Assembly (NCBI GenBank): GCA_030390025.1
Contig: CM059452.1
Coordinates: 9,672,001-9,736,000, forward strand
Reading direction: 5' to 3'
Length of the DNA stretch: 64,000 nt
DNA from: Squalus acanthias
Lineage: Eukaryota
Shown: piece by piece, positions 29,457 to 64,000 of the stretch
Numbering within the stretch: the first letter of the stretch is position 1
Layout of the letters: each line of letters starts with the position of its first letter
The notes under the pieces: model-generated
The model's database searches: none
What the model saw: the letters and a program-made list of their open reading frames with translations, nothing else
Told to the model about the DNA's origin: nothing
Made by a program: the position numbers and the translations under genes

Positions 29457-29660
29457 TCAGATATCTAACAAGTGTGCAGCTGCCGTGGGAGTGTTTGATG
29501 GGACAGTGTAGAGGGAGCTTTACTCTGTATCTAACCCATGCTGTACCTGCCCTGGGAGTGTTTGATGGGGCAGTGTAGAGGGAGCTTTACTCTGTATCTA
29601 ACAAGTGTGTACCTGCTCTGGAAGTGTTTGATGGGACAGTGCAGAGGGAGATTTACTCTG
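29457..29660. repeat. 67-bp satellite, ~3 units, opposite orientation to the larger arrays
   Basis: gggagtgtttgatgggacagtgtagagggagctttactctgtatctaac... Confidence 0.9.
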
Positions 29661-34007: not shown

Positions 34008-34399
34008 TCATTGACAAGAATTGACGGTGTCCATCAGAACAAGGGAAATGTTGACAAAACTGGGTTTACCGCTGGATTTATTAACCGTTCTGTTGATGAT
34101 CTTCAAGGGGATCGCTTCATGTCCCACCACACAGGAGTAAGAAGCGCCGCTGGCCCACTCCTCCGCTGCAATGGATAACAGGCTGTACATGAAGAAGGAA
34201 CTGCTGCCGTTCTCCGCCATCACCTCGGTGTTCTTGTAGTTGCCGGAATTCACCGGCTTGTCATTGACGGTCCACTTGACGAAGATCTCTCGGGGGGAGA
34301 AACCTCTCACTAAGCAGGTGAGGCTGACGAACCTCTGAGCGGAGACTTCTTCTGCCGGGGGCAGGAGGACAGACACGGACGGTTCCCGCGGATCTTTAG
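34008..34399 (-). CDS. IGHM: IgM Cmu4 plus secretory tailpiece
   Basis: AKDPREPSV...[10 protein letters not shown]...YSCVVGHEA...NKSS|[20 protein letters not shown]; tailpiece has NIS glycan site and penultimate Cys. Internal donor g|gtaaa at 34070/34069; two aataaa at 33964-33979. Confidence 0.97.
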
Positions 34400-34915
34400 C
34401 TGCAGAACAATTACAATAAAGGTCAATAAACTGGAGAATTCCAGAGACAATGAAACCGGCGGTTAGATGTGAGAGAAATGTGCTTTGCGCTGAATTTAAA
34501 GGATTCCCTTTTCCCCTCTGTGTCCTGTCCGGTTTTCCAGCCTGGAGCAGAGCGGGATACAATCCTTCTCTCTGGGAGCTTGAAGAGTTGGACTGGAAAA
34601 TTATATAGAATTTACATCATAGAAACAGACCATTCGGCCCAACTGGTCAATGCCGCTGTTTATGCTCCACACGAGACTCCTCCCACCTTACTTCATCTAA
34701 CCCTAATAACATATCCTTCTATTCATTTTCCCCTCATGTACTTATCCAGCTTCCCCTGAAATGCACCATCTCGGGTCCCTGAGGGTTTAGTTAGTGGAAT
34801 TACCAATTGAATTATCAGAGCAGTCCATTAAAACACTGAATAGAATGAATTGGGCCGTGCACAACACCGGAAATAGTCACAGAGTCTCACTTATTGCTAC
34901 AATCTCACCGCTCAC

Positions 34916-35224
34916 CTTTTTCCTTGTGGATGGAATCTCTTATAGGAGTCGGCATATCCTGATGGCTCACCACGCAGTAGAACTCATCCCCACTCAGCCA
35001 GGCTTGTGTCGAGATGTTTAAGTTGCTGATCACGCTGTTGGGAGCCTCTCCGGGTTGGACGGCAATCTCTGATTTCAAAGTCTCCTTTTCTCGGGTCCAG
35101 GACACGTTGACTCCATAAGGAGCATTAGACACGACGCAGGTTAAGGTCACCGTCGCCTCCAGTAAGACCTGTTCTAGTGACGGTTGCGGAAGAGTGATTT
35201 CTGGATCGTTGCATGAGGAACCAT
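34916..35224 (-). CDS. IGHM: IgM Cmu3
   Basis: [33 protein letters not shown]...FYCVVSHQD...HKEK; 309 nt, phase 1-1. Confidence 0.96.
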
Positions 35225-35924
35225 CTGTGAACAGAAATGAAAGTCAAGCAAAGCTTCATCTTCAGAATCAGGACACCAGTATTCAGCCTTCACTCTCTCA
35301 GGGAGAATAAATCACCTTTGAGATATCAACCTCTCGTTGCTGCTTAAACACCATCGTTATTGGAAGGACAACGCATTGAAAATGATTCCGGGAGACTTTT
35401 TAACATTTCCGGTGTAGTTGCTCCCAGAGCCTCCTGTAATGGGCTGTGAAGCAAATACCCGGCGTAAAAATGAATAAATTCGGGCGCAATTGTGTTACGC
35501 ACTGAGTAGCGCTCTTCCTGAAATCCCTTGCTCCTTTACGCCCGTCTATAGATCCTTGTGCCCGAACGCATTCCCGCTCATTATATTGGCTCCGCCCCCA
35601 GGGTCAAGAGCTCTACACGAAAATTACACTGGTTCAAAACGGGTGTCAAATGATATCCAGGATTTTAGGTGCAACAGGAAACAAAGTTAATTTTCTGATG
35701 TCTTGTTGCGATTTTGGGGGCGATGAAAATGTGCAGGAACCAGTTACAGCCCCTGTCAGAGGAGAAGTGAAAGGTCGGGAGAATGGAGTTCCAAGGGGTC
35801 TTTGGGAGGTGAATAATGTGTAATGCCGATGTGAAGTAGTTGGTTCATTTCTGTCATTAGTGAGCACTTAACATGTCTGGTGAGAGAGAGTCAGAAGGAA
35901 ATATGACCGCAGGGCAGTAATAAC

Positions 35925-36470
35925 AACAGAGGAACAGGAGTAGGCCATTCGGCCCATTCAGCCTGTTCCGCCATTCAATGTGATCATGGCTGATCTACAC
36001 CTCAACACCATCTACCCGCCTTGGTTCTGTAACCCTTGATACCCTTGCCTAACAAACATCTATCAATCGCAGTTTTAAAATGTTCAATTGTCCCCCAGCC
36101 TCAACAGCATTTGGGGGGAGAGAGTTCCAGATTTCCACTGTCCTTTGTGTGAAGAAGTGCTTCCTGACATCACCCCTGAACGGCTCGGTTCTAATTTTAA
36201 GGTTATGCCCCTTGTTCTGGACTCCCGCACCAGAGGAAATAGTTTCTCTCTATCTCCCCTATCAATTCCATTTATCAACTTAAACACCTCAATTAGATCA
36301 CCTCTTAATCTTCTATACTCAAAGGAATACAAGCCTATTCTGTGCAACCTCTCCTCATAATTTAACCATTTCAGCCCCGGTATGATTCGGGTGAATTTGC
36401 GTTGCACCCTCTAAAGCCAGTATATCCATCCTGATGGCGGTGCCCAGAATTGAACGCAGTTCTCTAAATA
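35925..36470 (-). mobile_element. CR1 3' fragment
   Basis: QRKFTRIIPGL...RRLRGDLIEVFK. Confidence 0.88.
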
Positions 36471-36669
36471 GGGTAGATGTCCTTTCCAGCAGTGGGCCCC
36501 GAGACAGTTACCAGTAAAGGGTTCCAGACACCTACTGCCGCTCCGAATATGATCAGCCAACTCAGGATAAACCTGAGACCAAGGACACCTCATGTACTCT
36601 CTGACATCAGAGCAGAGGGAAACCTTCTTTGGCGAGGTTATGGAATCCTGAGCCATGAGGAATCCTGAT

Positions 36670-37077
36670 TCAGAGGATCGTGGGTTCAAGTCGCACTCCA
36701 GATACTTGAACACAAAATGTGAGCTGACACTCCCAGTGCAGCACTGAGGGAGCGCTGCATTGTCGTCTTCTGGATCAGACGTTAAACCGACGTCTGCTCT
36801 CTCAGGTGGACATAAACGATCCCATGGCTCTATTTGGAGGAAGAGCGGGGCAGTTCTCCCAGGTGGCCTGGCCAATACCTATCCATCACCAAATAATAAG
36901 ATTATCTGATCATTATTACATTGCTGTTTGTGGGACCTTACTGTCTGCAAATTGGCCGCCGCGATTTCTACATTACAACAGTGACCACATTTCAGGAAGT
37001 ACTTCCTTGGCAGTAAAGCGCTTTGGGACGTCCAGAGGTCGGGAAAGGCGCTATGTAAAGGCAGTTCTTTCTTTTAT
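36670..37077 (+). mobile_element. tRNA-derived SINE
   Basis: B box gggttcaagtc, central gcagcactgagggagcgctgca, 3' end gcgctttgggacgtcc...aaggcgctatgtaaa...ttcttt. Same family as 61905-62365 (-) and the tail at 1-41. Confidence 0.75.
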
Positions 37078-37379
37078 TTTATATCGGAAGAAAACACAAA
37101 CAGCATGATTGTAAATTAGAAATAGAGCTTTCTCAGGGTAAACCTGAGACTGAGGACACCTCACTCACTGTCTGACATCACAGCTGAGGGAAATCTTTGG
37201 CGAAGTGCTGGAATCCTGAACCGTGAGGAACCCTGAGTCAGCACTGACATCGGAAGGAAACACACACTGTGTGATTGGAAATTAGAAATATTTCTGTGCT
37301 TTTTACGAATTCCAATAAAATTGCTGGCAGAGATCAGCGGTCAGAATGGTCTGGGACTTCTCGGGTTTGTGTCTCTTAC

Positions 37380-37691
37380 CCTGAGATCTGGAGATGTTTC
37401 GGCTTTGGGTGACCCCTTGATGAGAGACCTGGCAGGTATAGACCGAGCCAGCGAACCATTCCCCGGCGGGGAATGTCAGCCGACTGGTCGCCGAGAAGTT
37501 CCCGTTCACTTCAAAGACGGGAGAGGTGACGAAGCCCGAATCCATGAGCTGTCCTTTCTTCAGCCAATTCACGGTTATTGACTTTGGACGGAAATCGATG
37601 ATTGAACACACGGCGGTTACAGACCTGCTGCTGATGATTTCTTCACTGGAACTCAGGGTGAGGATCACAGTTGGATGATGTACCACACGAT
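37380..37691 (-). CDS. IGHM: IgM Cmu2
   Basis: [12 protein letters not shown]...[16 protein letters not shown]...YTCQVSHQG...SRSQ; 312 nt, phase 1-1. Confidence 0.96.
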
Positions 37692-37751
37692 CTGGAAGAA
37701 AATACATTTTATTGGGATTATGTTGCAATTAAGAACTGTAAAGCGGTTTTT

Positions 37752-38760
37752 TACATAGAATCTACAACACAGAAACAGGCCACTCGGCCCAACAGGTCGG
37801 TGTTTATTCTCCACATGAGCCTCCTCTCTCCCTACTTCATCTCCCCATCAACATAACCTTCTATTCCTTTCTCCCTCCTGTACTTATCTAGATTCCCCTG
37901 AAACGCATCTATTCTATTCGCCTCAACTACTCCATGTGGTGGCGAGTTCCACATTCTACCCACTCTCTGGGTAAAGAAGTTTCTCCTGAATTCCATATTG
38001 GATTTATTAGTGATTATCTTATATTTATGATCCCTAGTATCGGGTTCCTCCTCAAGCAGAAATATTATCTCTACATCTAACCTTTCAAACACCTTCAGAA
38101 TTTTAAAGACCTCTATTTGGTCACCCCTCAGACTTCTCTTTTCGAGAGAAACGATCCCAAGCCCGTTCAATCATTCTTGACAGTTACAATTTTTCTTTCT
38201 GGTATCGTCCTTGTAAATCTTTTTTGCACTTCTCCAGTGCCTCTGTATCATTCATATAGTATGGAAACCAGAACTATAGACAGTACTCTAAGTGTGATAT
38301 GGAGACCAGACCTGTACACAGTGCTCTAAGTGTGATATGGAGACCAGACCTGTGCACAGTACTCTAAGTGTGATATGGAGACCAGGCCTGTACACAGTGC
38401 TCTAAGTGTGATATGGAGACCAGACCTGTGCACAGTAATCTAAGTGTGATATGGAGACCAGACCTGTGCACAGTACTCTAAGTGTGATATGGAGACCAGA
38501 CCTGTACACAGTACTCTAAGTGTGATATGGAGACCAGGCCTGTACACAGTGCTCTAAGTGTGATATGGAGACCAGACCTGTGCACAGTACTCTAAGTGTG
38601 ATATGGAGACCAGACCTGTGCACAGTACTCTAAGTGTGATATGGAGACTAGGCCTGTACTCAGTACTCTAAGTGTGATTTGGAGACCAGACCTGTGCACA
38701 GTACTCTAAGTCTGGTCTAACCAAAGTTGTATAGAAGTTGAACATAACTTCTCACCTTTT
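37752..38760 (-). mobile_element. CR1 3' fragment containing an internal minisatellite
   Basis: SLEKRSLRGDQIEVFKI...RNFFTQRV and 3' tail. Confidence 0.85.
38270..38715. repeat. 38-bp minisatellite, ~11-12 copies
   Basis: Unit cagtactctaagtgtgatatggagaccagacctgtaca. Confidence 0.95.
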
Positions 38761-38792
38761 CACAGTTTCCCCCTGTATCCCACAACACTAAC

Positions 38793-39092
38793 CTGGCATT
38801 TTGACGCTTAAGTCCGACCCACTTTGTCGAACCTGGCAGTAGATGGCGCTGCTCCCCACCTCTGACTCGGTGATGGTTAACTGGCTGCTCAGGGTGTAGG
38901 TTCCCTTCTTGTTGAACACTGACGGGTAGGTCTTCAATCCAGTGGTGATCGGCTCTTTATCTTTACTCCAGGAAAGGCTGGTGATTTCCGGGAAGTAATC
39001 CATCGCCAAACAGCCGTAGGTGACGGGGCCGCCGGTGTTGGGTTGTTCACAGGAGGAGAGCAGGGCGTAGAGGGTGGGAGGAGACTGTGTCG
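38793..39092 (-). CDS. IGHM: IgM Cmu1
   Basis: [17 protein letters not shown]...[10 protein letters not shown]...IYCQVRQ...KMP; 300 nt, phase 1-1; N-terminal light-chain-linking Cys present. Confidence 0.96.
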
Positions 39093-41490: not shown

Positions 41491-42339
41491 ACGGCTCAGC
41501 GGAATTAGTTCTTCCCGATTTAATGGAAGGAAACGCTTCATAATGTTGAACACCTCTATCAGATCTATTTTATTGTTTGTTATAATGCAAGAGGATGTTT
41601 AAAATAAAGGAACTGAGGAATTTGACACAAATGATTCAATCGGATACTGTCACAGAGTCTTAAAGCTTATTGTGAATGACGACTCATCGCAGGCTGACTG
41701 TTTCTCTTTAAATGTTCCACAGAGGTGCGGCTCAGTGACTGTGAGCCTTGTGCTGTGACCCAGTCCAATAGCTGCACCTCACCCGAGTTTGTCCCTGCCT
41801 GTTACCTTTTTAAAAAACAATTGAACGATATAATGCTTTCAAACATAAGGTTCCCAGGATGGTTATTTGGAGCGGGAGTCTCGACATTCTCCATTTAAAT
41901 TCTCAAAATAACTTCCCGCCTCCCATCAGATCAGAACAGGCGCTGCTTTCTGGAGCGTTACAGTCACTTCCTGAAACTGTTTGTTCTGAAAGTGAGCTCA
42001 GGATCCGGCCAATCTCATTCAATCATTATCTGATACTCAAAATGTTTAAAGTTTATTAATTCATTTAAAATGGGCAGTTTTATTTGCAATAAGGTTAAAC
42101 TCAATTAATGCGCGGTTGTTTCATCGGAGCAATGGAAAGTTTTATCTTTATATATCTGGCTCGGAAACTCACACTTTATTAGTTGGATGCACATTAAGGT
42201 TCCTTGAACAACACGGGACAAAGCACTCACAGATCTGTTACAGTACAGATAGAGGGTAAAGCTCCTTCTGCACTGCCCTGCCATCCGCTGTACCCTCAGG
42301 AAAAGGAAGAGATTGATTCCGAGCAACGCCAAGTCTACA

Positions 42340-43610
42340 CAGTACTGTCAAACACTCCGGGTAAGGCACCGCACTGGTTAAATACAGAGTAAAGCCCCAT
42401 CTACATTGCACAATCAAACATTCCCAGGGCAGGTACAACATCGGCTCGATACAGAGTAAATTCTCCCTCTACACTGAACCATCAAAGATTCACGGGGCAT
42501 AACAGCACGGGTTCGATACAGAGTAAAGCTCCGTCTACACTGTCCAATCAAACACTCCCAGGGCAGGTACAGCACGGGTTAGATACAGAGTAAAGCTCCC
42601 TCTACACTGTCCCATCAAACACTCCCAGGGCAGGTACAGGACGGGTTCGATACAGAGTAAAGCTCCCTCTACACTGTCCAATCAAACACTCCCAGGGCAG
42701 GTACAGTACGGGTTAGATACAGAGTAAATCGCCCTCTAAACTGTCCCATCAAACAATCCTAGGGCAGCTACAGCACGGGTAAGACACAGAGTAAAGCTCC
42801 CACTACACTGTCCCATCAAACACTCCCAGGACAGGTACAGCACGGGTTAGATACCGAGTAAAGCTCCCACTACACTGTCCCATCAAACACTCCCAGGACA
42901 GGTACAGCACGGGTTAGATACAGAGTAAAGCTCCCTCTACACTGTTCCATCAAACACTCCCAGGGCAGGTACAGCACGGGTTCGATACAGAGTAAAGCTC
43001 CGTCTACACTGTCCAATCAAACACTCCCAGGGCAGGTACAGTACGGGTTAGATACAGAGTAAATCGCCCTCTAAACTGTCCCATCAAACAATCCTGGGGC
43101 AGCTACAGCATGGGTTAGACACAGTAAAGCTCCCTCTACACTGTCCCATCAAACACTCCCAGGGCAGGTACAGCACGGATTAGATGCAGAGTAAAGCTCC
43201 CTCTACACTGTCCCATCAAACACTCCCAGGACAGGTACAGCACGGGTTAGATACAGAGTAAAGCTCCCTCTACACTGTCCCATCAAACACTCCCAGGGCA
43301 GGTACAGCACGGGTTAGATACAGAGTAAAGCTCCCTCTACACTGTCCCATCAAACACTCCCAGGGCAGGTACAGCACGGGTTAGATACAGAGTAAAGTTC
43401 CCTCTACACTGTCCCATCAAACACTCCCAGGGCAGGTACAGCACGGGTTAGATACAGAGTAAAGCTCCCTCTACACTGTCCCATCAAACACTCCCAGGGC
43501 AGGTACAGCACGGGTTAGATACAGAGTAAAGCTCCCTCTACACTGTCCAATCAAACACTCCCAGGGCAGGTACGGCACGGGTTAGAAACTGATTAAAGCT
43601 CCTTCTACAG
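42340..43610. repeat. 67-bp satellite, ~19 units, in the JH-Cmu intron
   Basis: Unit cactcccagggcaggtacagcacgggttagatacagagtaaagctccctctacactgtcccatcaaa; period 67 (43261/43328). Confidence 0.95.
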
Positions 43611-46600
43611 TCTGCCAGACGTGTTTCTGAAATGCTCCTTCTGAATGTCACAAACTGGGTTACTGAGTCCAGTTCGGAGGCGCCTCCTCAAACTTAAAGT
43701 CAAACTATCGCATTTCTCACAGATACAAGCTTCTGAAATAAGTGAGTCGAATTATACTCCATGAAACACAAGAGAACAAACCAGCAGGTTTACAAGCCAG
43801 TCAGGAGGACTCCTGATTCTCACACAGTGAGCAGGCGCACAGAAACAGAACAGACACAAACGGTGCAACAATCGTGCTCTCAGCAGATAGATCTCTTCAA
43901 TCTGTCAATTTCAATGAAGCTGATTTCTAATTGATCTCTTGTCAATTTCCGACCACCTCAAGGGTCTGCACGTTTTTTGAAATTAAACTGATCTTAATTT
44001 GAAAAAGTTCTTCGACTTCCAACCATTTCTCCCTCCCTGTCTACAATCTTACAAACCGAGTAAGATTTAGTTTCCCTGAAAACTAGTTTACTGAAATAAT
44101 TCACATTACAGGGTAATTTGCTGCATATAACAGGGACTCCGTGACAGAGCAAGAATTTAACGAACTAGGAACCACTGGTTTTAATATAATTTCATAATTA
44201 AATATAACCGGTAAAATCATCGATACAAAACACGAAGTTAATTCATTAAAATCTGCGGCGACACCTTCTCGAGCTGAGCACAGCTGAGTAAGACATGTAT
44301 TGTTTCTAAATTAATTTTAGACATAATTTAAAATTCTCTCCAACACTTGAGATTTTACAGTAACTGTAATCCTGTCCAGTATACAACGCAATTGTGGGAG
44401 GTCATTTATGTTTAATTAATTCGCACTCACGTTATATTCTAAGTTAATATTGATGTTAGCTACATTATATTAAAATTAGTTGATATTAATTTTAATCCTG
44501 TTTCTGCCTGGTAACTTTTGAACTTATAGGGTTTCAAGTAAATTAACATGACACTTATCAATATTAAAATATTAAAATCATATTAATAGATAAAGACATT
44601 CAGACAAATATATTATTTTTATTTAAATCAAATCACATTTGAATAAGTTAAAATGGTCACTAACTTCTAATACATTCCCGCTCTCTATCTACACACTTGT
44701 AAACTCTGCATGTTTCTGAACTCTCTGATACAACATAAACTCCATCTTTTCTCAGAGTGGATTTCACATGATGGATTTAGGAGTGGACTATTTTAAATAG
44801 TTCAAAGTCTGGCCGTGGTCACATCTCACTAACTACCGATGGACTGTAACACCGTGTGTTTACTAAAGCAGGGCTCTCGAGTTTAAACATTGTCCTCAAT
44901 CTTAACTATAAATACTATTTTCGTGAATTAAAAGACAACCGGCCAGTTTGCAGTCAGTAACAGAGACTCCGCTATTTAATAACACAGACAATCTTTTTAT
45001 ACTTTACTCCCGTAATTCACACAATGCCCGTAAATTAATTATTAAATATATTCTGCTATTTATTGAAAATCAGTTCCAGAATGATCAGTGTAAAACTGGC
45101 GGAGAACAAATCAATCAGACCATCTGCGACACTGAAATTTAATGAGCAAATGGAGGAGAGATTTTGTTGATCAATTTAACATTAATGAGAATTAAACATA
45201 ACTCTCAGATGTAATCTGTTCACTGTCTATAATTCTATCCCGTATACAGCACAGCTATGGGAGACAGGATGTTGTTATTAAATTCAAAACTAATATTAAC
45301 CTTTTGTAATTTAATTAATCTGCTTGAATGTCAATGGGTTATTTGTCTGTCTCCAGCCTTACGCAGTCTGCACCTTCCGTGAATTTAAATAGAATTATAT
45401 GAACAATTCTTTGACTGCCAGCGACCGCTCAGCCTGAGATCTTACAAACTGTTTAAGATTAGTTTAGTGATAATTGTCTCGCTATCAAACAACAAATAAT
45501 ATTGAAGGAATAACATGGTTTCCGCTGCACAGTAAGAATTTAATAACCCGGCAGATTTATTACATTTACAAACTGCAATTTATACTCGCATTTAATGCAT
45601 AATTAAATACAATCTGTCATTCATCTGTGTGAAACAGGGAGATAACAATTAATTTCAAACCCCTCATTAAACTGAACACTGCGGTGGAATCAGTCTGCTG
45701 TTATTAAAATAATTTCAGACATAATCAGAAATTGTCTCCAGCCTCTAAAATTCTCCGCTCAGGTTAATTGTGACCAGTGCTCAGCAGAATTGTGGAAGGC
45801 GAATAATGTTTAATACATTAATATTAATACTGCAACATATTTAGTGATATTGGGCAATATTACCGCATTATAATCGTTTGAGTTATATTAATTTAACTCT
45901 CCTTCAACCTGCAAATTGTTAATTATATAATTCGTAATTACAGTAACATTTCACCTATTAAATGTGAGCACCGTAAACCATAGATTAATAGTTGAATCTG
46001 TAATTCTCACTTCAATAAAAAGATGCATTAAATTATTTTAAAATGATTTTTGATTTATAAAACCTACTTGTCTGCCTAGAATCATCTTTCAAACAGTTTC
46101 AACAGATCAGAAAACCTGCAGCAGTTCGATGTCACCGAGATTAAACATTGCAGAAACTCCAAACAGTTTCACAAACTTTACTTATTCAAAGTAACCCAGG
46201 CACACACTCTCCTCAGCAGATAAACAGCAAATCACATCACTGAGGGGCTGAATCCCGCAACAGAACGTTTTGTGGAGAAGCAGCTTCATTCTATAAACCC
46301 TTTCAGCAGAATCAAATGTAACATTGCAAAAAAATCTCAATACAGAATCCAGCGAACCCATCTATCACTGAACGAATTAATTATTGAAATAAACAAAAAT
46401 ATAAAATAATGACAGTGGAATTGTGAGCAGACGGATCAGGTTTAATAAATTACAATTGATATAGCATATTGTTGTAATATTGGGTGATATTACTACATAT
46501 GATAACTTTATTTATATTAATTTAAATCTCATTCAGGCTACAAATGTGTTGATTATGTAGTTATAAATTACAGTAACATTTCACGTATTGAATATGACCG

Positions 46601-46929
46601 TTGGTGAACATTAGATTAAAAGCTGACAATGTAAATATCACAAATAAAAATACATTAAAATATCTTAAGATTATTTTTGACCGCTAGAGCTTTCTGTTTT
46701 CTGCTTTACAATCTTATTTCAAACACATTTAGTCACATAATGTTTACATTTGATCAGAAAACCTGCAACCATTAGATGTCACCGAGATTAAACATTGTAG
46801 AAACTCCAAACAGTTCAACAACCGTTGGGTATTTAAAGTAATGATGCGGAGATGCCGGTGTTGGACTGGGGTGGACAAAATTGAGAGGTCGCACAACACC
46901 AGGTTATAGTCCAACAGTTTTATTTGAAA

Positions 46930-46967
46930 TCACAAGCTTTCGGAACTATCGCTCCTTCCTCAGGTGA
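46930..46967 (-). ncRNA. Minimal type I hammerhead ribozyme motif, sense to the IgM pre-mRNA
   Basis: Reverse complement UCAC-CUGAGGA-A-GGAGC gaua GUUCC-GAAA-GCUU-GUGA: conserved core, stem I UCAC/GUGA, stem II, palindromic AGCU stem III. Confidence 0.8.
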
Positions 46968-48250
46968 AGTAAATTGGATACAGAATCGTCAGAGCATATA
47001 TAGATGGAAAAAAAAGCATGTGTACTTTACAATTGCAGACCAATAAATTAAATCATCCTGACTATCTGCCGAGGTGTGATAAAGTTAATTAAGTCAGCCA
47101 GGAAGGTACCACATCAAAAGACATAGCAAGATACAACTGAGACAATGAGGTGAAGTCGCAGGGGTTCTAACGTGTCAAAAGCTGCCGTATGTATGTAAAA
47201 CGAAAAGCTTTAAAAAAAAAATTTACTTTTTTACTGGGAAAATGTTTACTTTTTTACTGGGAATCACATCTGTGAACAAGCTAACGACGACTCGAGTCCG
47301 GATCACGTCATGTATCGTGACATAAACCCAAGATCCCGATTGAGACCGTCTTCATGAGTGCAGAACTTGGCTATCAGTTTCTGCTCGATGATTTTGCGTT
47401 GTCTTCAAACAGCCGCCTAACCTCAGAAGTACCATCGTTCGCAGCAAATTACCCAGCTTTCAGGATAACAGCGACCACGACACCACACAACCCTGCCATG
47501 GCAAACTCTGCAAGACATGCCAGATCATCAACACAGATACCACCATCACACGTGAGGACACTACCCACCAGGTACATGGTACATACTCATGTGACTCGGC
47601 CAACGTTGTCTACCTCATACGTTGCAGGAAAGAATGCACCGCGGCATGGTACATCGGCGAGACCATGCAGACACTGAGACAACGTATGAACGAGCACCGC
47701 GCAACAATCGCCAGGCAGGATTGTTCCCTCCCAGTCGGGGAACACTTCAGCAGTCAAGGACATTCAGCCTCGGATCTGCGGGTAAGCGTTCTCCAAGGCA
47801 ACCTTAGAAACACACGACAACGCAAAATCATCGAGCAGAAACTGATAGCCAAGTTCTGCACTCATGAAGACGGTCTCAATCGGGATCTTGGGTTTATGTC
47901 ACGATACATGACGTGATCCGGACTCGAGTCGTCGTTAGCTTGTTCACAGATGTGATTCCCAGTAAAAAAGTAAACATTTTCCCAGTAAAAAAGTAAATTT
48001 TTTTTTAAAGCTTTTCGTTTTACATACATACGGCAGCTTTTGACACGTTAGAACCCCTGCGACTTCACCTCATTGTCTCAGTTGTATCTTGCTATGTCTT
48101 TTGATGTGGTACCTTCCTGGCTGACTTAATTAACTTTATCACACCTCGGCAGATAGTCAGGATGATTTAATTTATTGGTCTGCAATTGTAAAGTACACAT
48201 GCTTTTTTTTCCATCTATATATGCTCTGACGATTCTGTATCCAATTTACT

Positions 48251-48288
48251 TCACCTGAGGAAGGAGCGATAGTTCCGAAAGCTTGTGA
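48251..48288 (+). ncRNA. Minimal hammerhead ribozyme motif in the Penelope pLTR
   Basis: tcacctgaggaaggagcgatagttccgaaagcttgtga. Confidence 0.8.
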
Positions 48289-48605
48289 TTTCAAATAAAA
48301 CTGTTGGACTATAACCTGGTGTTGTGCGACCTCTCTATTTAAAGTAACCCAGGCGCACAGTCTCATCAGCAGATAAACACCAAATCACATCAATCAGGGG
48401 CTCAATCCCTAAACAACATTTTTCCTGAAGAAACTGTTTAAATCTATTATCCCTTTGCAGCAGAATCAAATGAAACATTGCAAAAAATCTCAATACAGAA
48501 TCCACCGAACCCAAGTTTCAGTGAATGAATGAATTATTGAAATAAACAGAAATACAAAATAAAGACACAAATACAACAGTTGCTGAAAGAGTGAATGTTT
48601 CTTAC

Positions 48606-48653
48606 CTGCAGTCACCGTCACCATGGTGCCTTGGCCCCAGTAGTCGAAGTAGT
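48606..48653 (-). CDS. IGHJ: JH segment
   Basis: YFDYWGQGTMVTVTA with gtaag donor. RSS heptamer 48654-48660, 23-bp spacer, nonamer 48684-48692. Confidence 0.97.
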
Positions 48654-49044
48654 CACAGTGTTCCATTCCCCGGGCTGGGTCACACAATAACCGGCTCTGT
48701 GTAAAACAGACAGAAATCCAACATTAGTTTAAATATTCACATCCCAGAGGAAAAGTAAAGTCACGATGCATCTTCATAAAATGATAAATGTGTCAATGGA
48801 TACTTTTCACTCTTCATAAATTCCCTGATGATTTATATTTCACAGAGTAACCCATGAACAGTTATTGAAAGCACCAACTGATCAATGATTAATTATCACA
48901 GTTTATCCATATTAAACTGTGCTAGTGGACAGTGCTGGACACAAATAGGACTTCACTGCGTCTACAGTTGGATTGTGAAAGCGACACTGACCGAGACTCA
49001 CTCAATTAGTGCTGAGGGTTTTTGTATTGACAGTAACTGCTGTG

Positions 49045-49058
49045 CCACCCAGTTGTAC
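49045..49058 (-). other. IgH D2 segment (gtacaactgggtgg), 12/12 RSS
   Basis: 5': agtatttgg-12-cactgtg. 3': cacagca-12-acaaaaacc. Confidence 0.95.
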
Positions 49059-49437
49059 CACAGTGAGACTCGCCGTGCCAAATACTCCGGCGGACTGTTA
49101 ACTGTAAAATACAGAGATGAAATTCCACAGCGCTCTCAAAACCCTGATTCCGACTCCCCTAAGAGTGAATCAGAGAGATATTTCAGTTTGTGCTGGTCAT
49201 TATCTTTATAAAGGGAATTGGAAAACTTCTGAAGCATCTGTGCATATTTAGCACGACAATTAACACTAATAAAGCAGAACACTTTCATAAATTTTTATAA
49301 ATCTATCTTACTTTTACCCATTATTTTAATTTAAGCCTCGTTTTCTCCGATTCTCCTGCCGTGGCAGAGATCGCAGGTGTGAGCAAACTCGCTGTCTGGG
49401 GTTTTTGTATGAGGAGCTCGCTCTGTGCAGCACCGTG

Positions 49438-49451
49438 ACCCACTGCTGTAC
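49438..49451 (-). other. IgH D1 segment (gtacagcagtgggt), 12/22 RSS
   Basis: 5': agtatttgt-12-cactgtg. 3': cacggtg-22-acaaaaacc. This is the classic shark D1 configuration. Confidence 0.95.
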
Positions 49452-49907
49452 CACAGTGACAGGAACCCGCACAAATACTGCACTCACTCCCTGTTCAGTG
49501 CCGCCTCTCAACATTCACTTCAAATAGACATTCACTTCTGATCTAGTTTAGAATTTATCCAACAGTTTACACAACGTAATAGAAAGTGAACACAGTCCCA
49601 ACCAACTCCCTCCAGGTATCAATCATATTGAAACGAGCATTAACTCCAGCTCTGCCATTACTGACACTGTGAACAGTAAACATGAGCACAGCCAAAACCT
49701 CTCCTCAGTACATCGGTTACTGTGCTAGATTTTTACCATTGAATTTTCAGTCTGTTCATTCAGTAAGAAGCGGCGTGTGGTCTGGTTCTGAACAATACGT
49801 TAAGATCGCGTTTAATACAATTACTGACCGTCAGATTATGATGGAAATTGTTGAATGTCCCCTCGTTCTGTTCTTGTACGGGTCCAGCCCTGGTTCCTCT
49901 CGCTGTG

Positions 49908-50385
49908 GTGTCTTGCACAGTAATAGATGGCGGTGTCTTCGGTCCTCAGGTTCTTCATGTCCAAAGCGAAGATGCTGTTTGAAGTGTCTTTGGACGCAGT
50001 AAATCGACTCTGGATCCCTGGGGCGTAGTTATTGCTTGATGAACTGTAGTAGTCAACCAGCCACTCCAGCCCCTGTCCGGGAACCTGTCGGACCCAGTTC
50101 ATGTAGGTGCTACTAAGAGTCAACCCGCTGGTTTTACAGGTCAGTCTCAAGGAGCCTCCGGGACTCCCGGTCTCTGCCTCTGGCTGCGTCAACACGATAT
50201 CCGACTGGACACCTGTAAAAACAATCAAAAACCCCGAGGATTAATCCTGGTGAAATGATTCCTGACTCTGTAGCATTCCAGAGAGAGACTAACACTGAGA
50301 CAGTAACAGTGAGAGACTTGGACAATAAAAACTACTCACCGGATAAGAAAGCCAACAACAGACTGAGAGAAATCGCCGACCTCAT
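49908..50385 (-). CDS. IGHV: IgM VH segment, intact (leader 50385-50340, V exon 50212-49908)
   Basis: [15 protein letters not shown]|[12 protein letters not shown]...LTCKTSG...[12 protein letters not shown]...[13 protein letters not shown]: cacagcg (49901-49907), 23-bp spacer, acaagaaca (49869-49877). Confidence 0.97.
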
Positions 50386-50476
50386 CCTCCTGGCAATGTG
50401 TGGGAAATGGTTCTGACAAGAACTCACTGAGCAAACCCGCTCCCGGACTGTTGTATTGCGGTCCCAGTGACCGGCA

Positions 50477-56945: not shown

Positions 56946-57607
56946 GTCCACTCTCTATTTGTGGCAAACTCTGTGTGTAAAAGTTAACTAATTCACACTG
57001 GTGTTGTCCTGTGCCAATTGATCGCAGTTTTAATGTTAAGGATTGTTTTACCTGCAGTATTTTTTATTCAACCTTCACGTGACCCCCGATTATGTGACAG
57101 ATCCTGGAACCGTGACCTCACAGCATCGAGTTCACTAACGCTCATCTGGTTAAGAGGAACAACTGAAAAGAGCACAGACAAAGTGTTTGTTTTATATATG
57201 TGTGTGTGTGTGATTGCATTAATTTTTGCAAGTGCATTCTACAAAAATAAATGATTATTTCACCAGTTATTTTTCAGCATTTTATTTTCTTTTATTCAAA
57301 ATAAATTGCAGATGGTTTAATATCTTTGATATTTATTGATAACCCATTCTCTGAGTGCTCTTGGTTATAAAGCGATGTCACGCTGACCATTCCGTTACCA
57401 AGGTGAGCATGTCTGTCCGTAGTATTCAGTTGGGAAGGGAATTAAATCAGAGCGAGGATAATGAGTAGCTACGCACCAGACTCTGCGCTTTATTGTCAAG
57501 TGATCACCTCAGCATCACACAGATTCTCCTGATATACACCTCGAGCATGTGATGATTGGTGTAAGTAATGGTAAAAATTAAAATCTACATATACCTCATA
57601 TCCCTCG

Positions 57608-60600
57608 ACACTGTCCCATCATACACTCCCAGGGCAGGTACAGCATGGGTTAGGTACAGAGTAAAGCTCCCTCTACACTGCCCCACCAAACACTCCCAGG
57701 ACAGGGACAGCACGGGTTAGATACAGAGTAAAGCTCCCTATACACTGTCCAATCAAACACTCCCAGGGCAGGAACAGCACGAGTTAGATACAGATTAAAA
57801 CCCCCTCTACACTGTCCCATCAAACACTCCCGGGGCAGGTACAGCACTGGTTAGATACAGAGTAAAGCAACCTCTACACTGTCCCATCAAACACTCATGG
57901 GGCAGGTACAGCACAGGTTAGATGCAGAGTAAAGCTCCCTCTACACTGTCCCATCAAACACTCCCAGGGCAGGTACAGCACGGGTTGGATACAGAGTAAA
58001 TCTCCCTCTACACTGTCCCATCAAACACTGCAAGGGCAGTCACAGTACGGGTTAGAGGTAGGTTAAAGCTCCCGCCACACTGTCCCGTCAAATATTTGCA
58101 GGGCAGGTATAGCACTGGTTAGCTACATAGTAAAGCTCTCTCTACACTGTCCCATCAAACACTCCTAGAGCAGTTTTAGCACAGGTAAGATAAAGAGCAA
58201 AGCTCCCTCTACACTGTCCCAGGCCAGGTACAGCACGGGTTAGATACAGAATAAAACACCCTCTACACTGTCCCATCACTCACACCCAGGGCAGGTACAG
58301 TACGAGTTAGATACAGAATAAAACTCCCTCTACACTGTCCCATCAAACACTACCAGGGCAGGTACAGCACGGGTTAGATTCAGAGTAAAGCTCCTTTTAC
58401 ACTGTCCCATCAAGCAGTCCCAGCACAGTTACAGCACGGGTTAGATTCAGAGTAAAGCTCCCTCTACACTGTCCCATCAAACACTCCCAGGTTAGTTATA
58501 GCATGAGTTAGATACAGAGTAAAAATCCCTCTATATTGTCCCATCAAACACTCCCAGGGCAGGAATAGCACAGGTTAGATAAAGAGCAAAGCTCCCTCTA
58601 CACTGTCCCATCAAACACTCCCAGAGCTGGTACAGGCCGGGTTTGATACCGAGTATTTCTCCCTCTACACTGTCCCGTCAAACATTACCAAGGCAGGCAC
58701 AGAACGGGTCAGATATAGGCTAAATCTCCATCTACACAGTCCCAGCAATACTCTCAGGGTGGGTACAGCACGGGTTACATATAAGTAAAGCTCCTTCTAC
58801 ATTGTCACATCAAATACTCCCAGGGCAGGTACAGCACAGGTTAGATACAGAGTAAAGCTCCCTCTACACTGTCCCATCAAACACTACCAGGGCAGGTACA
58901 GCACGGGTTCGATACAGAGTAAAGCTCTCTCTACATTGTCCCCTCAAACATTCACAGGGCAGGTACAGCACGGGTTCGATACAGAGTAAAGCTCCCTCCA
59001 CACTGTCCCATCAAACGCGCCCAGTGAAGGTACAACACGGATTAGATATAGAATAAATCTCCCTCTACACTGTCCCATCACACAGTCCCAGGGCAGGTAC
59101 AGCACGGGTTAGATACAAATTAAAGCTCCCTCTACACTGTCCCATCACACAGCCCCAGGGCAGGGACAGCACGGGTTAGATACAGATTAAAGCTCCCTCT
59201 ACACTGCCCCATCACCCATAACCAGGGCAGGGACAGCTCGGGTTGGATACAGAGTAAATCTCGCTCTACACTGTCCAATCAAACACTCCCAGGGCAGTTA
59301 CAGCACGGGTTAGATACAGAGCAAATCTCCTTCTACACTTTCCCATCAAACCCTCCCAGGGTAGGTGCAGTACAGGTTAGATACAGAGAAAATCAACCTC
59401 TACGCTGTCCCATCAAACACTCCCAGGGAAGGTACTGCATGTGTTTATACAGAGGAATGCTCCCTCTAAACTGTCCCATCACCCATACCCAGGGAAACTA
59501 CAGCACGGGTTAGTTACAGTGCAAAGCTCACACTAAACTGTCCCATCAAACACTCCCAGGGCAGGTTCTGCACATGTTAGATGCAGAGTAAAGCTCCCTC
59601 TACACTGTTCCATCAAACACTCTCAGGGCAAGTACAGCATGTGTTTGATGCAGAATAAAGATTCCTCTACATTGTCGCGTCAAATACTCTCAGGACAGGT
59701 TCAGCACGGATTAGATACAGTGACAAGCTTCCTTTACACTGTCCCATCAAACACACCCAGGGCAGGTACAGCACGGGTTACAGACAGAGTAATGCTCCCT
59801 CTACACTGTCCCATCAAACACACCCAGGGCAGGTACAGCACAGATTAGATACAGAGTAATGCTCCCTCTACACTGTCCCAGCAAACGCTTCCACGGAAGG
59901 TACAGCACTGGTTAGATCCAGAATAAAGCTCCTTCGACACTGACCCATAAAACAATCCCAGGGCAGGGACAGCACGGGTTAGATACAGAGTAAATCTCGC
60001 TCTACACTTTCCCATCAACCACTCCCAGGGCAGGTGCAGTACAGGTTAGATACAGAGTAAAGCTCCATCTACACTGTCCCATCAAACACTTCCAGGGATG
60101 GTACTGCATGTGTTAGATACAGAGGATTGCTCTCTCTACACTGTCCCATCAAACATTCACTGGGCAGGTACAGCATGGGTTATATACAGGGTAAAGCTCA
60201 CACGAAACTGTCCCATCAAACACTCCCAGTGCAGTTACAGCACGGATTAGATACAGAGTAAAGCTCCCTCTAAACTGTCCCATCAAAAACTCTCAGTGCA
60301 GGCACCGCATGGGTTACATGCAGAGTAAAGCTCCCTCTACACTCTCCCATCACACAGTCCCAGGGCAGGGATAGCACGGGTTAGCTACAGAGTAAAGCAC
60401 CCTCGAAACTGTCCCATCAAAAACACTCAGGGCAGGCACTGGAAGGGTTTTATACAGAGTAAAGCTTCCTCTACACTGTCCCATCAAAAACTCCCACGAA
60501 AGGTACAGCACGGTTTAGATACAGAGTAAAGAACCTCTACACTGTCCCATCAATCACTTCACCTGAGGAAGGAGCGATAGTTCCGAAAGCTTGTGATTTC

Positions 60601-61023
60601 AAATAAAACTGTTGGACTATAACCTGGTGTTGTGCGACCTCTCAATTTTGTCCACCCCAGTCCAACACCGGCATCTCCGCATCATGACCATCAAACACTC
60701 CCAGGGCAGGTACAGCGCGGATTAGATACAAAGTAAAGCTTCCTTTACACTGTCCCATCAAACACTCCCAGGGCAGGTACAGCGCGGATTAGATACAGAG
60801 TAAAGCTTCCTTTACAATGTCCCATCAAACACTACCAGGGCAGGTACAGCACTGGTTAGATACAGAATAAAGCTCCCTCAACACTGTCCCATCACACATT
60901 CCCAGGGCAGGGACGGCAAAGGTTAGATACAGAGTAAAGCTCCCTCTACACTTTTGCATCAAACACTCCCAGTGCAGATACAGGGTAAAGCTCCCTCTAC
61001 AGTGTCCCATCAAACATTCCCAG
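57608..61023. repeat. 67-bp satellite array, diverged units
   Basis: Same unit as 42340-43610. Confidence 0.95.
60554..60687 (+). mobile_element. Solo Penelope pLTR-end fragment with hammerhead (60559-60596), inserted in the satellite
   Basis: Essentially identical to the reverse complement of 46842-46970; flanked by ccatcaa at 60547-60553 and 60688-60694. Confidence 0.88.
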
Positions 61024-62365: not shown

Positions 62366-62709
62366 AAACATATCACAGCTTGTATTTTAAAATGTTGCCA
62401 TTTAGCTCAGTGTGTCTAAAGTTCAGGGCCTGAGCCCAGTCTTACACCGATCCGTTTAATTGTCAGGGCCTGGTTCTATTATCTTGCCTGGGATGTTATT
62501 CCCACACTGTTGTAACGGTGCATGGAATTTCCACTGGATCCATATAAAAGTGACAGCAATTCCGCAAAGGAACATCTGGAAGTGCCCGAGGGAGAAGGGT
62601 AGAGTGATAAATATTCAGCAACATATCAGGGCGAACTCCACTGCTGTTATAGCGTCATAGAGTCATACAGTCATAAGGTCACAGAAGGTGGCCATTCGGC
62701 CCATCAAGT

Positions 62710-64000
62710 CCCTCTACACTCTCCCATCCAACACTCCCAGGGCAGGTACAGCACGGATTAAATACGGAGTGATGCTCCCTCTACAGTGTAAGATCAAACA
62801 CTCCCAGTTCAGGTCCAGCACTGATTAGATATAGAATAAAGCTCTCCCTAGACTGTCCAAACACAAACACCCAGGGCAGGGACAGCATGGGTTAGATACA
62901 GAGTAAAGCTCCCTCTACACTGTTCCATCAAACACTCCCAGTGTAGGTAAAGTACAGGTTGATACAGAATAAAGCTCCCTCTACACTGTCCCAAAAAACA
63001 ATCCCAGGTCAGGTACTGCAAGGGTTAGATACAGAGTAAAGCTCCCTCTACACTGTCCCAAAAAACACTGCCAGGGCAGGCACAGCACGGGTTAGACACA
63101 GAGTAAAGCTCCCTCTACACTGTCCCATTAAACACTCCCAAGGAAGGTAGAGAACGGGTTTGGTATAAAGTAAAGCTCCCTCTGCACTTCCCCATCAAAC
63201 ACTCCCAGGGCAGGTACAGCACGGGTTAGATACAGAGTAAAGCTCCCTCTACACTGTCCAATCAAACACTCCCAGGGCAGGAATATCACTGGTTAGATAC
63301 GAATTAAAGCTCCCTCTACACTGCCCCATCAAACACAACCAGGACAGGTACAGCACTGGTTAAATATAAAATAAAGCTCCCTCAGCACTGTCCCATCAAA
63401 CACTCCCAGGGCAGCTACATCACGCGTTAGATACAGAGTAAAGCTCCCTCCATACTGTCCCATCAAACACTCCCAGGACCGGTATAGCACGGTTAAATAC
63501 AGAACAAATCTCCCTCTACACTGCCCCATCAAACACTCCCAAGGCAGGTACAGCATAGGTTAGATATAGAGTAAAGCTTCCTCTGCACTGTCCAATCAAA
63601 CACTCCCAGGGCAGGTACAGCACGGGTTAGATACAAAGTAAAGCTCCGTCTGCATTGTCCCATCAATGTCTCCCAAGGCAGGTACAGCACGGGATAGTGA
63701 CAGATTTAAGCTCCCTCTACACTGTCCGGTCAAACACTCCCAGGCCAGGTACAGCACGTGTTAGATACAGATTAAAGCTCCCTCTACACTGTCCATCAAA
63801 CACTCCCAGGGCACGTGCAGCACGGGTTAGACACAGAATAAAGCTCCCTCTGCACTGTCCCATTAAACACTCCCAAGGAAGGTAGAGAACGGGTTTGGTA
63901 TAAAGTAAAGCTCCCTCTGCACTTTCCCATCAAACACTCCCACGGCAGGTACAGCACTAGTTAGATACGAATTAAAGCTCCCTCTACACTGTCCAATCAA
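62710..64000. repeat. 67-bp satellite array, running off the window
   Basis: Same unit as 42340-43610. Confidence 0.95.

Follow-up and report, generated by a model that had tools for sequence, protein, structure and literature searches.

The window analysed in this study is a 64,000-nt stretch of the Squalus acanthias genome (assembly GCA_030390025.1, contig CM059452.1, forward-strand positions 9,672,001 to 9,736,000), and all coordinates below refer to it unless another contig is named. Its minus strand carries an IgM minicluster consisting of a leader exon (50340-50385) and a VH exon (49908-50212) that together span 49908-50385, two D segments with flanking RSS (D1 at 49438-49451 and D2 at 49045-49058), a JH segment with its RSS and a GT donor (48606-48653), the constant exons Cmu1-Cmu4 together with a secretory tail (34011-39092) and a TM1 exon at about 30.7 kb. 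All frames are open and the signals plausible; the minicluster looks intact at the sequence level, and its V-D-D-J-C order is that of IgM in cartilaginous fish. Both strands of the window at 300-21300 carry several TCR alpha/delta-like V segments, which directly adjoin the IgM cluster; PMC12227049 describes the V-D-D-J-C minicluster layout for IgM of cartilaginous fish as well as the linkage of TCR alpha/delta-like V segments with IgM clusters. The JH-Cmu1 intron extends from its first base at 48605 to 39093. At the start of this intron lies an old tandem duplication of ~640 bp (45700-46841 and 48336-48570, 72–84% identity), which is common to paralogs, and arrays of a 67-bp minisatellite were found at 29462-29660, 42334-43609, 57601-60983 and 62709-64000, one of them within the J-Cmu intron and also present in paralogs.

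The JH-proximal copy of the tandem duplication is interrupted by a 5'-truncated Penelope-like insertion of 1,494 bp (46842-48335), which starts 270 nt past the JH donor and, containing its own inverted duplicate, is assigned to neither strand. It is flanked by a 12-bp AT-rich target-site duplication (46830-46841 and 48336-48347, plus strand) that is present as a single copy in empty paralogs. From left to right, the insertion consists of a 41-nt unpaired tail found on the left arm only, with an acceptor-like site near 46865 (46842-46882, minus strand); an inverted arm in the sense orientation of IgM that holds the end of the element ORF, the 3' region, a hammerhead motif and an AATAAA at 46924-46919 (46883-47403, minus strand); a unique 412-nt spacer that encodes a 3' part of the ORF with a C-x4-C-x2-C linker and a GIY-YIG endonuclease (47404-47815, plus strand); and a right arm (47816-48335, plus strand). 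The arms are 521 nt (left) and 520 nt (right) long and differ solely by an indel of one base in a T run. The ORF stops near 47914, the spacer and the start of the arm encoding its end.

The GIY-YIG domain of this copy scored slightly under the Pfam cut-off (E 2.6e-4; 21.7 versus 22.6 bits), and a longer copy on another contig (L031), which differs at 1 of 932 nt over the core and right arm (99.9% identity), additionally contained RVT_1 (E 1.1e-8), giving the order of reverse transcriptase and C-terminal GIY-YIG that characterizes EN+ Penelope-like elements. The terminal repeat, the GIY-YIG ORF end and the RVT_1 of longer copies bear out the Penelope pLTR origin proposed in the first-pass annotation. 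The inverted truncated copy with a one-sided tail of the 30-40-bp class was seen in the window and in all 19 inverted loci fetched, and is described as common in such insertions by Craig et al. 2021 (PMC8557442); the EN+ insertions presented there also share the AT-rich target, the C-terminal GIY-YIG and the CX2-5CxxC linker with the window copy, which is the same in kind, its clade being read from the motif alone. According to the same source, Neptune elements typically have this linker and Nematis has one like it, and the C-x4-C-x2-C in the translation thus suggests a Neptune-type element; Poseidon was dropped as the clade label after the linker motif pointed to Neptune-type. The Poseidon element PAc of Anolis carolinensis (Frangieh et al. 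2024, PMC11167929) resembles the shark element in having a hammerhead upstream of its tail, although PAc belongs to the Penelope/Poseidon clade and the shark element is Neptune-type by motif. Other copies of the shark family (L032, L036, L040 and L049) are near-perfect, almost spacer-free palindromes of up to ~3 kb. Judged by its sequence, the window insertion is very young, too young for selection to have filtered it.

The hammerhead motif of the left arm (46930-46967, minus strand) begins 1,638 nt 3' of the JH donor, in agreement with the ~1.6 kb given earlier, and is followed by 7.8 kb of intron. The sequence comprises a 4-bp stem I, the core CUGAGGA, one extra A, a 5-bp stem II that opens with G10.1-C11.1 and includes one G-U pair, GAAA, a palindromic AGCU at 15.1-16.1 that would permit dimer formation, and U17, with a predicted cut at 46934/46933; it thereby follows the pattern CUGANGA ... 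GAAA ... UH with H17 as U. The core, stems and palindrome uphold the earlier identification of a minimal type I hammerhead in sense orientation to IgM. Its exact counterpart (48251-48288, plus strand), likewise anticipated, is equal in 38 of 38 letters, antisense to IgM and transcribed first. The third and last copy detected in the 64-kb window by a loose regular expression belongs to a 133-bp stub from this family (60556-60688, plus strand), upstream of VH and outside the IgM transcript; the stub is embedded in a 67-bp minisatellite array.

When folded in isolation, the 38-mer formed stems I and II, with the 4-bp helix I, inside the 4-5 bp range of this hammerhead class, in both the MFE and centroid structures, and the fold was modest (z -1.9; 8 of 200 shuffles equally good); helix I was absent when the 38-mer was folded in longer contexts. 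Among 16 distinct variants in the 100 rows listed, compared by eye, 15 retained all five pairs of stem II, one with a two-sided change, the first two pairs being fixed by the search pattern itself. The suggested check against Rfam covariance models, run on 44-52 kb, returned four unrelated weak matches and no hammerhead match at E≤10; minimal hammerheads are beyond the reach of these models in this search. The motif is nevertheless not a chance resemblance, because it is part of a Penelope-like terminal repeat, 3' of the GIY-YIG ORF end, and its exact 38-mer has 1,850 genomic matches, compared with 0 for the reversed control. With the min-HHRs of metazoan PLE pLTRs, described in 2014 by Cervera and De la Pena (PMC4209133), it shares the type I topology, a helix I of 4 bp, the additional base between 9 and 10.1, G10.1-C11.1, a palindrome at 15.2-16.2, copies scattered in the thousands and opposite-strand pairs. 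It differs in its 5-bp helix II, its location in an IgM intron and its cartilaginous fish host, a group absent from the vertebrates that the part of that source considered here lists.

A relaxed hammerhead pattern matched 41,444 sites in the genome, or ~1 per 90 kb. The first 100 exact matches listed fell into 70 clusters, namely 29 minus-then-plus pairs, 0 plus-then-minus pairs, 1 plus-plus pair and 40 singles, and the antisense-first layout of the window was thus seen in 29 of the 30 pairs among those matches. A tail was present on exactly one arm in each of the 19 inverted loci fetched out of the 29 pairs. Since a minus-then-plus pair, read from either side, presents the antisense copy before the sense copy, the antisense-first order is automatic in any intron. 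The idea that the antisense arm is a selected safety catch was rejected, the order following from the insertion geometry of the family. Published work already covers this class of RNA, its opposite-strand pairs and the layout of the insertions, and for related retrozymes in Xenopus a preprint (10.64898/2026.07.22.740005) gives 42-44% of copies in introns, a mild depletion.

We then compared the locus with the other IgM clusters, dozens of which are close paralogs in this genome (99 candidates, of which 40 were scored; 30 loci fetched). The orthologous insertion site was empty in all 29 other clusters fetched, where the target sequence is single-copy, so the hammerhead is not in every IgM pre-mRNA as had been claimed; the insertion is private to one cluster and lacks the conservation at the orthologous site expected of a host-regulatory ribozyme. 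Within 20 kb from JH onward in each of 20 other IgM clusters, three hammerheads were detected, all in sense orientation. Enrichment of hammerheads in IgM clusters was rejected, as ~4.5 would be expected from the genome density. Two of the three represent a solo stub that two clusters have in common; it measures ~170 bp, derives from a sister subfamily and is located 1.8 kb into the J-C intron with no antisense arm (L098, C449:634400 onward, about +1810-1982; L100, C29:8647930 onward, about +1782-1954), and the third lies beyond TM1. Taken with the 41,444 relaxed copies, the built-in antisense-first geometry and the privacy to one cluster, a special status for IgM is without support, and the window motif is likely an ordinary hammerhead: the genome has tens of thousands like it, and the cluster that carries it is one of dozens for IgM.

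Folding was modelled at equilibrium for naked RNA at 37°C, using snapshots of the growing transcript. When the first hammerhead base emerges, 436 of 437 second-arm bases are predicted to pair with the first arm; all 38 nt of the motif are then predicted to pair with the antisense copy (P≥0.997), and forcing the hammerhead stems in the transcript context would cost 72 kcal/mol. Masking by the upstream arm, one of the outcomes foreseen in the first-pass annotation, is therefore borne out as a prediction, and the modelled motif, fully paired to the antisense arm, departs from the fold in context expected of a host-regulatory ribozyme. Proteins, helicases or editing could open the hairpin. Just one sense hammerhead motif exists in the IgM transcription unit, so that no dimer partner is available in cis, and a modelled double hammerhead (-18.5) gained no stability over two monomers (-19.4). 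Lunse et al. are said to have found dimer cleavage for the minimal hammerhead class in 2017.

The other outcome foreseen was cleavage of the nascent intron, by which the hammerhead, as a trans dimer between neighbouring nascent transcripts of a strongly transcribed gene or with the aid of the element protein, would lower the output of the cluster. All core bases are intact, the retention of stem II in 15 of 16 variants is consistent with the element keeping this fold under selection, the 7.8 kb of intron after the motif leave some minutes to cleave, and in a young family the element protein may be made; protein-assisted cleavage has been shown for the Anolis element (PMC11167929). Against these points, the motif is predicted to be masked and has no cis partner, and single min-HHRs are described as having no detectable cleavage and dimers as having low cleavage (PMC4209133). 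The Anolis hammerhead needs its protein to cleave, with no RNA-seq reads ending at the site in the data described in PMC11167929, and it needed RNA further 3' for activity; by analogy, the shark copy, which ends at the tail, would lack that RNA. Moreover, the genome tolerates tens of thousands of hammerhead copies, and unmasked sense copies are present in 3 of 20 other IgM clusters. A known sense-intron ribozyme several kb before the next exon, that of Cpeb3, is HDV-like, conserved and a single-copy monomer with a half-life of 2-3 min (PMC10919898), whereas the window motif is private, young, repeat-derived, dimer-dependent and predicted to be masked; slow intronic ribozymes leave splicing unaffected according to the same article, citing Fong 2009. 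With no cis dimer partner, full predicted masking and published inactive monomers, the proposed cleavage and attenuation are left without support: hammerhead cleavage of the IgM intron is unlikely, and a resulting loss of cluster output is extremely doubtful.

We therefore favor, with good though not full confidence, the reading that the motif is a standard minimal hammerhead of a young and abundant PLE, brought in by one mirror-pair insertion, predicted to be buried in a hairpin and likely to be spliced out uncut. The element protein would have used a staggered cut in AT-rich DNA to prime reverse transcription on each strand, leaving two 3' ends that face outward, which fits the account of PAc in PMC11167929, where the tail is delimited by two reverse-transcription start sites and both DNA strands are extended. 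Two outward-facing 3' ends would place the antisense arm first in either direction of host transcription. With ~436 nt of the second arm already zipped to the earlier arm when the hammerhead leaves the polymerase, the motif would be captured as it emerges; the 4-nt palindromic helix III would have no partner where the transcript holds no second sense copy, and the hammerhead would stay in the long hairpin and leave with the spliced intron.

An inert ribozyme need not mean a neutral insertion, given that the insertion lies 270 nt after the donor and brings two acceptor-like sites and two AATAAA signals. In the antisense arm, a candidate cryptic terminal exon (48171-48269, minus strand) combines a pyrimidine tract, CAG, a stop and AATAAA: the candidate acceptor is 351 nt 3' of the JH donor with 48254 as the first exon base, and in the JH phase the exon would run for 27 codons to a stop that overlaps an AATAAA at 48176-48171. 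Its tract has 11 of 12 pyrimidines followed by CAG/G; of the three IgM acceptors scored, the true Cmu1 site has 10 of 12, that of VH 8 and that of Cmu4 7. With the first arm alone, ~45% of the tract and 40-61% of the AATAAA are predicted to be unpaired; once the second arm exists, both are predicted to be fully paired. Inspection by eye revealed no clear branch point, and no RNA joint to 48254 was found among the contig matches listed from four runs over 48150-50450, most of which come from paralogs. Acceptor-like matches are also common, and since the same loose rule gave five sites in an empty paralog intron, which has eight AATAAA, the cryptic acceptor is a lead only. We regard it as unlikely that the antisense arm, rather than catalysis, attenuates the cluster through early termination of a short VDJ-only transcript, with a hairpin that may also slow splicing or be edited, and as somewhat more doubtful that the mirror image of the hammerhead core serves as a 3' splice site diverting JH to the 27-codon poly(A) exon before the hairpin closes. 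If it did, the product would be leader-VDJ only and the cluster would be damped, and the same threat would hang over every gene that has one of the thousands of antisense copies in an intron. Should the insertion matter at all, the antisense hammerhead as a splice acceptor would be a likelier route than the ribozyme. Among the records listed by the literature search, none concerned a hammerhead in an Ig intron or antisense hammerheads as acceptors.

An effect at the DNA level was also weighed, in which a 521-bp near-perfect inverted repeat just after JH would make this site prone to breakage, deletion or switching between clusters once B cells are activated. Sharks express V regions from one cluster with C regions from another (PMC4279169), and AGCT is denser in the insert than in the flanks (6.0 versus 1.7 per kb, from small counts). 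WRC density, on the other hand, is about equal (12.6 in the insert versus 11.4 per 100 nt in the flanks). Long spacers disfavor cruciforms, and the 412-nt spacer here speaks against them. We consider such an effect very improbable.

Sequencing runs were matched to the cluster using assembled contigs. Rearranged Ig sequence at V-J joints was present in two sequencing runs, which we guess to be RNA, and the matches of four runs aligned to 48150-50450 came mostly from paralogs. A single 73-nt contig over CDR2 had 1 difference from the window VH and at least 4 from 28 other paralog VHs (those aligned out of 29 fetched), a weak hint that an allele of the window VH may be transcribed in another animal, with or without the insertion. 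Among 32 of 4,326 pieces listed, no contig bridged the left insertion junction, and holes in coverage prove nothing.

As it stands, the insertion matters little for the cluster, and its value is that of a natural test pair. One genome holds near-identical IgM clusters in three states, empty, with a solo unmasked sense hammerhead and with a masked inverted pair, so that cluster-resolved RNA from one animal could test whether Penelope minimal hammerheads ever cut host pre-mRNA in vivo. The solo stubs of L098 and L100 would be a better cleavage test than the window copy. In local folding, their stem I forms only 7–8% of the time. One of the two carriers has a germline-joined out-of-frame VDJ and the other a joined D-J. 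Germline-joined clusters were seen at C29:8.647 Mb (L063/L021, out-of-frame VDJ), C29:6.60 Mb (L064, V-D) and C449:0.633 Mb (L060, D-J). In a further IgM cluster (L099 and L119, C3620:79490-99489), no Cmu1 match was found between JH and Cmu2. Finally, Cmu3 and Cmu4 are 99–100% identical in many clusters of the 20-cluster set, compared with 94–99% for Cmu1 and Cmu2, which suggests that the 3' constant exons are homogenised between clusters.
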